From Candidatus Harrisonbacteria bacterium RIFCSPLOWO2_02_FULL_45_10c (lineage in GTDB: Bacteria; Patescibacteriota; Minisyncoccia; UBA6257; 02-FULL-45-10c): DNA of 25,426 nucleotides. The notes below the pieces were generated by a model. That model was not told the DNA's origin and did no database searches. It saw only the letters and a program-made list of their open reading frames with translations. Of the stretch, positions 19,894-21,117 are shown piece after piece. A program made the translations under genes and the position numbers. Every line of letters begins with the position of its first letter. Positions within the stretch are counted from its first letter, which is position 1. The stretch spans positions 1 through 25,426 of the forward strand of contig MHJM01000010.1 in assembly GCA_001818705.1 (NCBI GenBank), in the 5' to 3' direction.

Positions 19894-21117
19894 ATGAAGA
19901 CTAGGGTATTTGTGGCGATGTCCGGCGGGGTTGATTCATCGGTTGCGGCAGCGCTTTTGAAAAAGCGGGGTTTTAGCGTTGTCGGGATCCATATGAAGTG
20001 CTGGAGCCAAGGCAGCGCGGATACGATAGGGAAAGGAGTGGCGTGCAGTGCGGAAGAAGACGCGGAATCTGCCCGGCGGGCAGCGGAAACGCTGAAAATC
20101 CCATTTTATGTTTTTGATTTTGAGAAAGAATATACCGATAAAGTAGTCCAATACATGATTGACGGCTATCGCAGGGGAATTACGCCGAATCCGGATGTGA
20201 TGTGCAATAAGGAGATAAAATTCGGTTTGTTTTTGAAAAAGGCGCTGGAAATGGGAGCGGACTATGTGGCAACTGGGCATTACGTTAAAATTCGTCCTAC
20301 CTATTTGCCTACCGACACCGGCGTCGTTTCGTTCCAGCAACGAAACGCGTCTACACCTCGCTCCGATTTCTCCGACTTACGTCAGAGACCAAGCAAATCG
20401 GAGCTCCGGAGTTGCCGCACGGCAAACAGGCAGAACTCATATTCACTGTTTATTTCTAAAGACAAGAATAAAGATCAGAGCTATTTTTTATGGACACTGA
20501 CGCAGGAGCAATTGCAACATTGTATTTTTCCGATTGGCGATTATTTGAAGCTGGAAGTGCGGGCGATGGCCAGGAAATTGGGTTTGCCGAATGCCGATAA
20601 AAAGGATTCTCAGGGCGTTTGTTTTATCGGTAAGGTAGCGCTGGAAGATTTTATCGGCCATTATCTGCCGTCCAAAAAAGGAATGGTTCTGAATACCGCC
20701 GGCGCCGTGATCGGCGAGCACAATGGGGCGCATTTTTATACGATCGGCCAGCGCCAAGGACTTAAAATCGGCGGTTTCCGCAAACCGCTGTATGTGGCTG
20801 AAAAAGATATCCGGTCCAATACGATTTTGGTTGCGGAAGGCGATGATAATCCGGCATTGTACCAAAAGGATGTTACTTTGAAGAGCATGAATTTCATCAA
20901 TCCAAAGTTATCTTCCCTTATTCGAGCGAATGGTAGAATGGTTGTTTTTGCGAGAGTCCGCTATCGGCAGCCAGTGTTTCCTGCAACAATTAATCAAGGA
21001 AAAAACAGGCGTTATGAAGTTTTTTTCAAAACGCCCCAAAAATTCGTTGCCGTTGGCCAATCGGCGGTTTTGTACGATAAGAGCGGCCAGCTTCTAGGCG
21101 GCGGCACTATTGTTTAG
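19894..21117 (+). CDS. mnmA: tRNA-specific 2-thiouridylase MnmA with an in-frame palindromic insertion
   Basis: SGGVDS, PNPDVMCN, ATGHY, KDQSYFL, KKDSQGVCF and GQSAV motifs. Confidence 0.96.
   Translation: MKTRVFVAMSGGVDSSVAAALLKKRGFSVVGIHMKCWSQGSADTIGKGVACSAEEDAESARRAAETLKIPFYVFDFEKEYTDKVVQYMIDGYRRGITPNPDVMCNKEIKFGLFLKKALEMGADYVATGHYVKIRPTYLPTDTGVVSFQQRNASTPRSDFSDLRQRPSKSELRSCRTANRQNSYSLFISKDKNKDQSYFLWTLTQEQLQHCIFPIGDYLKLEVRAMARKLGLPNADKKDSQGVCFIGKVALEDFIGHYLPSKKGMVLNTAGAVIGEHNGAHFYTIGQRQGLKIGGFRKPLYVAEKDIRSNTILVAEGDDNPALYQKDVTLKSMNFINPKLSSLIRANGRMVVFARVRYRQPVFPATINQGKNRRYEVFFKTPQKFVAVGQSAVLYDKSGQLLGGGTIV
20297..20433 (-). repeat. Structured element family B, copy B3, inside mnmA
   Basis: Minus strand reads CTGCCTGTTTGCC-GTGCGGCAA-CTCCGGA...GCTTGGT...GAGGTGTAG...CCGGTGTC-GGTA-GGCAAATAGGTAG. 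Confidence 0.92.

Follow-up and report, generated by a model that had tools for sequence, protein, structure and literature searches.

Within the window studied here, which is the whole 25,426-nucleotide (nt) stretch of contig MHJM01000010.1 from Candidatus Harrisonbacteria bacterium RIFCSPLOWO2_02_FULL_45_10c, the tRNA modification gene mnmA contains a complete copy of a structured palindromic repeat, the family B element, lying antisense to the gene and in frame with it. This locus raises the question of how a repeat that also occurs in intergenic DNA came to occupy a protein-coding gene, and whether it is the encoded peptide or the nucleotide structure that has been maintained there.

MnmA carries 49 extra residues at a predicted hairpin turn

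The gene and its insert-bearing segment comprise the following features:

19894..21117, plus strand: mnmA open reading frame (ORF) of 407 amino acids (aa), tRNA 2-thiouridine(34) synthase, identified by Pfam, alignment to solved structures, and conserved catalytic residues
20284..20301, plus strand: codons of beta-strand E131-136, first strand of the insert-bearing hairpin (AlphaFold model)
20293..20439, plus strand: 49 extra codons (aa 134 to 182), read in the element's antisense frame A1 and predicted to be disordered
20437..20454, plus strand: codons of beta-strand E182-187, second strand of the insert-bearing hairpin (AlphaFold model)

The mnmA ORF is intact, with its PP-loop and both catalytic cysteines present; in the MnmA alignment, S10 to S15, D101, and C104 are invariant and C243 is near-invariant. 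Residues 134 to 182 are bounded by ATGHYVKI on the N-terminal side and by YSLFISKDKNKDQSYFL on the C-terminal side. The Pfam catalytic domain is interrupted at residue 134, and solved MnmA structures align to the protein in two blocks (query residues 2 to 133 and 187 to 406 versus chain residues 8 to 134 and 146 to 362), so that some 42 to 49 residues are extra. The initial annotation had proposed a 49-residue in-frame insert at a place where MnmA typically has only a short loop. The ORF, structure, and Pfam alignments agree on that insert, and the segment from GHY to KDQ measures 62 residues in this MnmA versus 15 to 19 in the shortest close homologues. Of the coordinates given for it (20291 to 20439), the end is correct, and the start lies 2 nt before the codon boundary at 20293.

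With 58 homologues as input, the AlphaFold model reached a mean pLDDT of 86.7 and TM scores, by target, of 0.89 to 0.90 against MnmA crystal structures. Its sole long low-confidence stretch is the insert (pLDDT of ~46 to 53 at residues 141 to 180). As strands 131 to 136 and 182 to 187 flank the insert, the model, which had been suggested as a means of locating the loop, places it at a beta-hairpin turn. Thus, the insert is predicted to form a disordered loop at a surface hairpin turn, with the rest of the fold kept.

Misassembly, a concern raised at the outset, finds no footing in the sequencing data: in four DNA runs, drawn from four studies, contigs span both insert junctions without a single difference, and no alternative joint was seen. 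Among RNA runs, none contained this DNA. Assemblies do break ~60 to 100 nt upstream of the insert, inside a conserved part of mnmA that other community members also possess, and over window positions 20078 to 20240 each of the four runs shows a 5- to 30-fold increase in summed contig depth. Both effects are attributable to an mnmA stretch that is near-identical in DNA across many community members.

The insert is an antisense copy of a covarying structured element

Features of the element within mnmA are as follows:

20296..20434, minus strand: family B element core of 139 nt, terminal arm to terminal arm, with four further helices (covariance-model match)
20421..20434, minus strand: 5' arm of terminal stem P1
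20411..20421, minus strand: invariant 5' motif CGTGCGGCAAC, immediately inside P1 (invariant alignment columns)
20308..20321, minus strand: conserved 3' motif CCGGTG(C/T)CGGTAGG
20296..20309, minus strand: 3' arm of terminal stem P1, with two G-U pairs possible on the minus strand only

A covariance model (R1) built from 15 repeat copies matched the mnmA copy over its full length (20281 to 20449, minus strand; 152.9 bits, E value of 3.2e-36), in keeping with its original description as a complete antisense copy with motifs and stems intact. In the consensus fold of the 15 copies, a terminal stem of variable sequence encloses four inner helices together with single-stranded motifs that are invariant, and compensatory double changes occur at 41 of the 52 pairs. 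The terminal stem (14 bp or longer) represents a terminal inverted repeat whose sequence varies with covariation. The predicted folding energy of the insert is -77.9 kcal/mol (z of -7.5) for the minus strand and -52.5 kcal/mol (z of -5.6) for the mRNA strand, and the G-U pairs indicate that the structured strand is the one antisense to mnmA. At the gathering thresholds of Rfam 15, no family matched the element, and within the window only a tRNA-Lys passed; likewise, searching Rfam with two element copies at E values up to 10 yielded no credible family and no intron family.

Copies located inside genes retain this fold. In an alignment of 12 in-gene copies, which was fitted to the covariance model and hence favors pairing, 96.8% of cells were paired versus 35 to 45% with the partners slid, and both sides had changed at 43 of 52 pairs. 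The R1 scores of in-gene copies resemble those of intergenic ones, falling between 124 and 162 bits in 9 of 10, with 90.7 bits in genome G039. In one copy (G000:C13:14094-14280), the apex of P3 contains an additional hairpin (CCAGCACCTTT..AAAGGTGCTGG) similar to the apical one in the other repeat family of the window (627 to 654 and 5575 to 5602).

Repeat finding and alignment gave four element copies in the window, namely, the mnmA copy and three intergenic ones:

5675..5840, plus strand: intergenic element copy (R1, 168.6 bits)
10998..11158, minus strand: intergenic element copy (R1, 144.3 bits)
23980..24145, plus strand: intergenic element copy (R1, 163.4 bits)

BLAST of the 546-kb, 35-contig assembly revealed further copies, and with R1 we detected 18 in total. 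The element occurred in all 22 genomes searched of the same family of Patescibacteria (1 to 39 copies each), a family given as Candidatus Harrisonbacteria in some source records, and in 6 of 18 further families belonging to the same order. The median identity among copies within a genome is 57 to 63%, with a maximum of 82% in this genome. The within-genome copies are therefore old and diverged, yet all still fold. For the mnmA copy, identity is 74% with the closest paralogue and 54 to 66% with mnmA copies elsewhere. It had been suggested that the intact structure reflects either recent insertion or dual selection; the identity to the nearest paralogue argues against a very recent insertion, and selection on nucleotide structure is favored by the same-site copies of other lineages described below.

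The same MnmA loop has been filled repeatedly, in both orientations

A full-length element occupies the MnmA hairpin at 6 of 30 mnmA loci, being antisense in five (this genome, G008, G001, G020, and G039) and sense in one (G007). In the latter, a second, unrelated element adjoins the B element within a 128-residue segment. The segment from GHY to KDQ spans 15 to 116 residues in the 120 MnmA proteins closest to this one. We called the element state of these homologues by tblastn against intergenic copies: the element is antisense in 14 and sense in 3, the site is empty in 17, and 86 have other or longer loops, remnants included. Remnants with internal deletions were found in P0025, P0092, and P0114. 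On a host tree computed without the hairpin segment, element state requires 16 changes, compared with a mean of 16.1 for shuffled labels, and the element is thus distributed as patchily as random labels.

The relatives' MnmA sequences, whose alignment the initial annotation had suggested, also define the empty site. Besides the 17 empty homologues, they include a filled/empty pair, P0009 and P0019, that is ~80% identical outside a gap of 44 residues; the corresponding DNA gap of 132 nt coincides with the element from stem to stem, and microhomology makes 6 nt at the junction ambiguous. The MnmA loop is therefore a recurrent insertion site that accepts the element in both orientations, and both remnants and empty sites exist, none of which the initial annotation foresaw.

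Other sequences occupy this hairpin as well. A second insert type, with a peptide resembling ..STRFARPATRSLVLA.., recurs in P0020, P0070, and P0111 and in G007 (L027, 1231 to 1614), where it stands in tandem with the B element; it is also present at the phosphoglucomutase (PGM) junction of P0150. At least one further repeat family thus probably behaves like the B element at MnmA and PGM sites. In P0122 (217 aa, from another metagenome), the MnmA frame crosses the element at the same place and ends shortly after; this protein is apparently a frame-shifted or truncated MnmA allele.

Additional host genes and the reading frames used

MnmA is not the sole host. At C23:4486-4652 of this genome, a 478-aa phosphomannomutase/phosphoglucomutase (PGM/PMM) contains the element in frame and antisense, between Pfam domains I and II, and the SHNP-to-DCSNG spacing is 94 residues versus ~70 in insert-free homologues. 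The closest PGM homologue, P0128, carries an internally deleted remnant of the element, and P0129 has a sense copy. In G007, the element is found in PGM/PMM and in a class-V aminotransferase (Aminotran_5, cysteine-desulfurase-like), in the latter within the stretch immediately before the conserved SSIEH motif. Insert positions in these two families were set by sequence alignment, and that in MnmA by the structure model.

At the identical junction between domains I and II, PGM is split by unrelated ORFs of 325 aa in G004 and 296 aa in G008, an observation that favors general permissiveness of these sites over specificity for the B element. The split loci are L092 (G004:C87), 68 to 2409, and L096 (G008:C20), 1318 to 3784, and the intervening ORFs have no Pfam match. 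Many database PGM homologues are called as domains II to IV only. Locus L093 (G020:C10), 9172 to 10572 and 11230 to 11592, encodes a PGM with one internal TAG; at its junction, R1 gave a weak, degenerate match (24.6 bits), and a Y1_Tnp gene lies ~650 nt downstream.

Across 61 element copies, each of the six frames is free of stops in just 21 to 44% of copies, and the number of open frames per copy averages 1.9 versus 1.0 for shuffles. None of the six genome-level mnmA insertions contains a stop or disrupts the frame, as is expected under translation and would be unnecessary if the insert were spliced out. The five antisense mnmA loci all use frame A1, as do the PGM of this genome and the G007 aminotransferase; frame A2 is used in the G007 PGM and in P0137. 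Many MnmA inserts show internal frame changes. The antisense reading of the 3' motif CCGGTG(C/T)CGGTAGG gives a recurrent peptide, PT.TG. When 1.84 billion proteins were searched with a profile of the peptide encoded by the insert, just 7 matched; those inspected were additional MnmAs or ORFs that were short or unassigned, a low yield ascribed to the brevity and weak conservation of the peptide. Within the insert, third positions carry no excess of substitutions, and this lack of codon periodicity indicates that the peptide is not the object of selection.

Taking these data together, we consider it probable that the family B element is a selfish structured element akin to the Rickettsia palindromic elements (RPEs), translated and tolerated in permissive loops, with selection acting on its nucleotide structure. 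A structured palindromic repeat of ~139 nt would have entered mnmA in antisense orientation at a surface beta-hairpin turn. Because the insert length is a multiple of three and its frame is stop-free, it would be translated as a disordered loop of ~49 residues, and the enzyme would stay intact. Selection would purge insertions that carry stops or that fall in other parts of the gene, so that the same permissive loop would come to be occupied repeatedly. The fold would be kept by nucleotide-level selection, either for the element's own propagation or for another nucleic acid role, and the peptide would be a passenger. The data show what the insert is and where it lies, that it recurs in relatives beside empty sites and remnants, and that its structure is conserved; translation, tolerance by the enzyme, and mobility together with its route are what we infer under this reading.

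Insert structure is conserved beyond the silent sites of the host gene

Within three groups of same-site inserts (P0009/G001, P0015/P0010, and P0005/P0116/G020), the inserts are 87 to 94% identical in nucleotide sequence, with third-position identities of 0.81 to 1.0, versus 0.66 to 0.76 overall and 0.41 to 0.54 at third positions for the rest of the gene. Silent sites in these hosts are saturated. Such identity is not what a passively decaying insertion predicts, and we count it against the selfish-element reading. Where in-gene copies differ, the changes are for the most part compensatory or of the wobble type and seldom break a pair, and nucleotide identity falls sharply at the element borders. 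This sequence pattern points to selection on nucleotide structure and not on the peptide.

Insert divergence is incongruent with host divergence: between hosts 80% identical in aa sequence, the inserts are 77% identical with 12 double changes, whereas between hosts 65% identical, the inserts are 90% identical. The in-gene copies are mosaics in which some stems are common and others are not. Moreover, two copies at nonorthologous places in two genera, the sense copy in G007 mnmA and an intergenic copy of this genome (C19:24636), are 94% identical. Structural conservation, the lack of codon periodicity, incongruence, this nonorthologous pair, and the age of the within-genome copies together call for selection on structure plus some nonvertical process, be it reinsertion, horizontal spread, or gene conversion. 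Transfer of mnmA alleles by homologous recombination through the conserved flanks was considered for P0009/G001 and rejected, since identity collapses at the element borders.

A different reading of these results is that the segment is a dual-coding locus, one strand giving a protein loop and the other a functional folded nucleic acid, with the element kept within mnmA by purifying selection on an antisense RNA or single-stranded DNA form. The same-site conservation above the level of the gene, the compensatory nature of the differences, the sharp borders, the parity of in-gene and intergenic R1 scores, and the persistence of the fold in old, diverged copies all speak for it. However, insert divergence is decoupled from host divergence, and the remnants and empty sites mark the insert as dispensable. 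No promoter- or terminator-like signal stands at a fixed distance from the intergenic copies: TAnnnT boxes and T-runs showed no positional enrichment beside these copies relative to the control side. Their orientation between co-directional genes is only mildly biased (27 antisense versus 16 sense), and the element matches no Rfam family. Overall, we regard this alternative as unlikely.

Mobility and the flanks of element copies

GCGAGC-like direct repeats occur on both sides of many copies (e.g., window positions 5665 to 5690 and 5826 to 5845; loci L045 to L084). At other copies, the flanks lengthen the terminal stem by 5 to 8 bp, and several G007 copies have a further conserved downstream flank in common, so that the element may belong to a larger composite unit. 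Neither the flanks of copies nor the one filled/empty pair, with its 6 nt of ambiguous microhomology, revealed a clear target-site duplication. We also compared element occurrence with two enzyme families across 41 genomes and found no partner-enzyme association for either: Y1_Tnp is present in 11 of 29 genomes with the element and 2 of 12 without it, and reverse transcriptase (RVT_1) in 9 of 29 and 4 of 12, respectively. Y1_Tnp was not found in G007, which is 99% complete and holds 31 copies. This genome has one such gene:

G000:C22:4937-5629, minus strand: 231-codon ORF with a Y1_Tnp domain (IS200/RAYT-type HUH transposase)

It was rejected as a linked mobilizer, as BLAST searches of its flanks against the genome gave no repeats.

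Preferential targeting would be another route to repeated occupancy of one loop. Under a homing-like site preference, or replacement by gene conversion, related element lineages would spread horizontally among co-occurring relatives and arrive at the same places. The 94% identical nonorthologous pair, the incongruence of insert and host similarity, the mosaic stems, and the direct repeats around many copies fit this proposal. So does the element tree, in which the mnmA copies do not form one clade and that of this genome clusters with its own intergenic copies, although the tree is weakly resolved. On the other hand, the terminal stems differ between element groups occupying the same MnmA loop, for which reason a guide-like match between stem and target was discarded, and the distance from the element to the GHY codons varies from 4 to 21 nt. 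The presence of unrelated elements and of whole ORFs in the same sites fits tolerance, not targeting. We therefore hold this route to be quite improbable.

Removal of the insert as an intron- or intein-like sequence, a pseudogene, or a misassembly is highly improbable despite the strong structure of the insert and the known presence of introns in rRNA genes of the Candidate Phyla Radiation (CPR), given that the structured strand is antisense to mnmA while one relative has a sense copy in the same place, that no Rfam intron family (E up to 10) and no Pfam Hint or intein domain was matched, that every in-gene copy is in frame and free of stops, for which removal from the RNA would create no need, that the catalytic residues and modeled fold are intact, and that four independent runs assemble across both junctions.

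We return to the selfish-element reading with one reservation. There is a lesser but appreciable chance that the in-gene copies are dual-coding segments under purifying selection, or that the element is an active, horizontally spreading colonizer that arrives again and again in the same permissive loops by a route requiring neither a known transposase nor a reverse transcriptase; either would explain inserts that remain 87 to 94% identical in hosts with saturated silent sites.

Relation to known in-gene repeats

In the passages of PMC10969869 that recount Ogata et al. (2000), RPEs are palindromic repeats of ~100 to 150 bp that occur between genes and inside unrelated housekeeping genes of a small, reduced genome, where their in-frame insertions are compatible with the fold of the host protein, and they are defined by a conserved encoded peptide. 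The family B element behaves similarly: it is in frame and stop-free in MnmA, PGM/PMM, and Aminotran_5 proteins as well as present in intergenic DNA, and its predicted position in a surface loop of MnmA is compatible with the fold. The analogy with RPEs drawn in the initial annotation has thus gained substance, with in-frame insertions in at least three protein families, in a disordered loop or in variable stretches that break homology. The likeness drawn here is one of behavior, and the hosts belong to another phylum (Patescibacteria/CPR). In addition, the B element has the more elaborate fold, in which a terminal stem is joined by four helices and invariant loops and 41 to 43 of 52 pairs covary, and its peptide is poorly conserved and read in several frames and both orientations, the nucleotide structure being conserved instead.

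Bacterial miniature elements (MITEs) are short, nonautonomous repeats with inverted ends that can add peptides within ORFs, and several fuse in frame, including QMITE1 of Coxiella, intragenic ERIC, and pneumococcal BOX (PMC10969869, PMC5896051). The B element shares their short length, terminal inverted repeats, and location in ORFs. It differs in having no cognate transposase among the two families examined (Y1_Tnp and RVT_1), no clear target-site duplication, and copies that are highly diverged within a genome rather than near-identical; two hallmarks of MITEs, the partner enzyme and the near-identical copies, are therefore missing. The divergence of its copies, unlike that of a recently bursting MITE family, counts against the selfish-element reading, as do a terminal inverted repeat that varies through compensatory changes, the want of a clear target-site duplication, and the failure of either enzyme family to track the element.

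REP elements are extragenic structured palindromes of 20 to 40 nt that are mobilized by RAYT (Y1 HUH) transposases. The importance of a single-strand fold and the Y1_Tnp gene of this genome recall that system, but Y1 is absent from G007 with its 31 copies, and no repeats around the C22 Y1 gene recur elsewhere in the genome. Self-splicing introns and inteins are set apart by the lack of Rfam and Pfam matches and by the presence of both orientations at the same mnmA site.

In the literature library searched, we found no report of RPE-like in-gene elements in CPR. The present case, with its unusually structured element, would extend to the Candidate Phyla Radiation a phenomenon, selfish DNA in genes, that has so far been best documented in Rickettsia. 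The MnmA loop, which across many relatives is empty, filled either way, or left with remnants, constitutes a natural experiment. In ultrasmall genomes with little intergenic space, repeats may be accommodated by way of translated permissive loops, and in-gene elements would then account for part of the variation in CPR protein length and for apparent gene splits that confuse annotation. Finally, conservation of the insert above the silent-site level makes it a testable question whether a nucleic acid structure inside a coding sequence may be under selection of its own.
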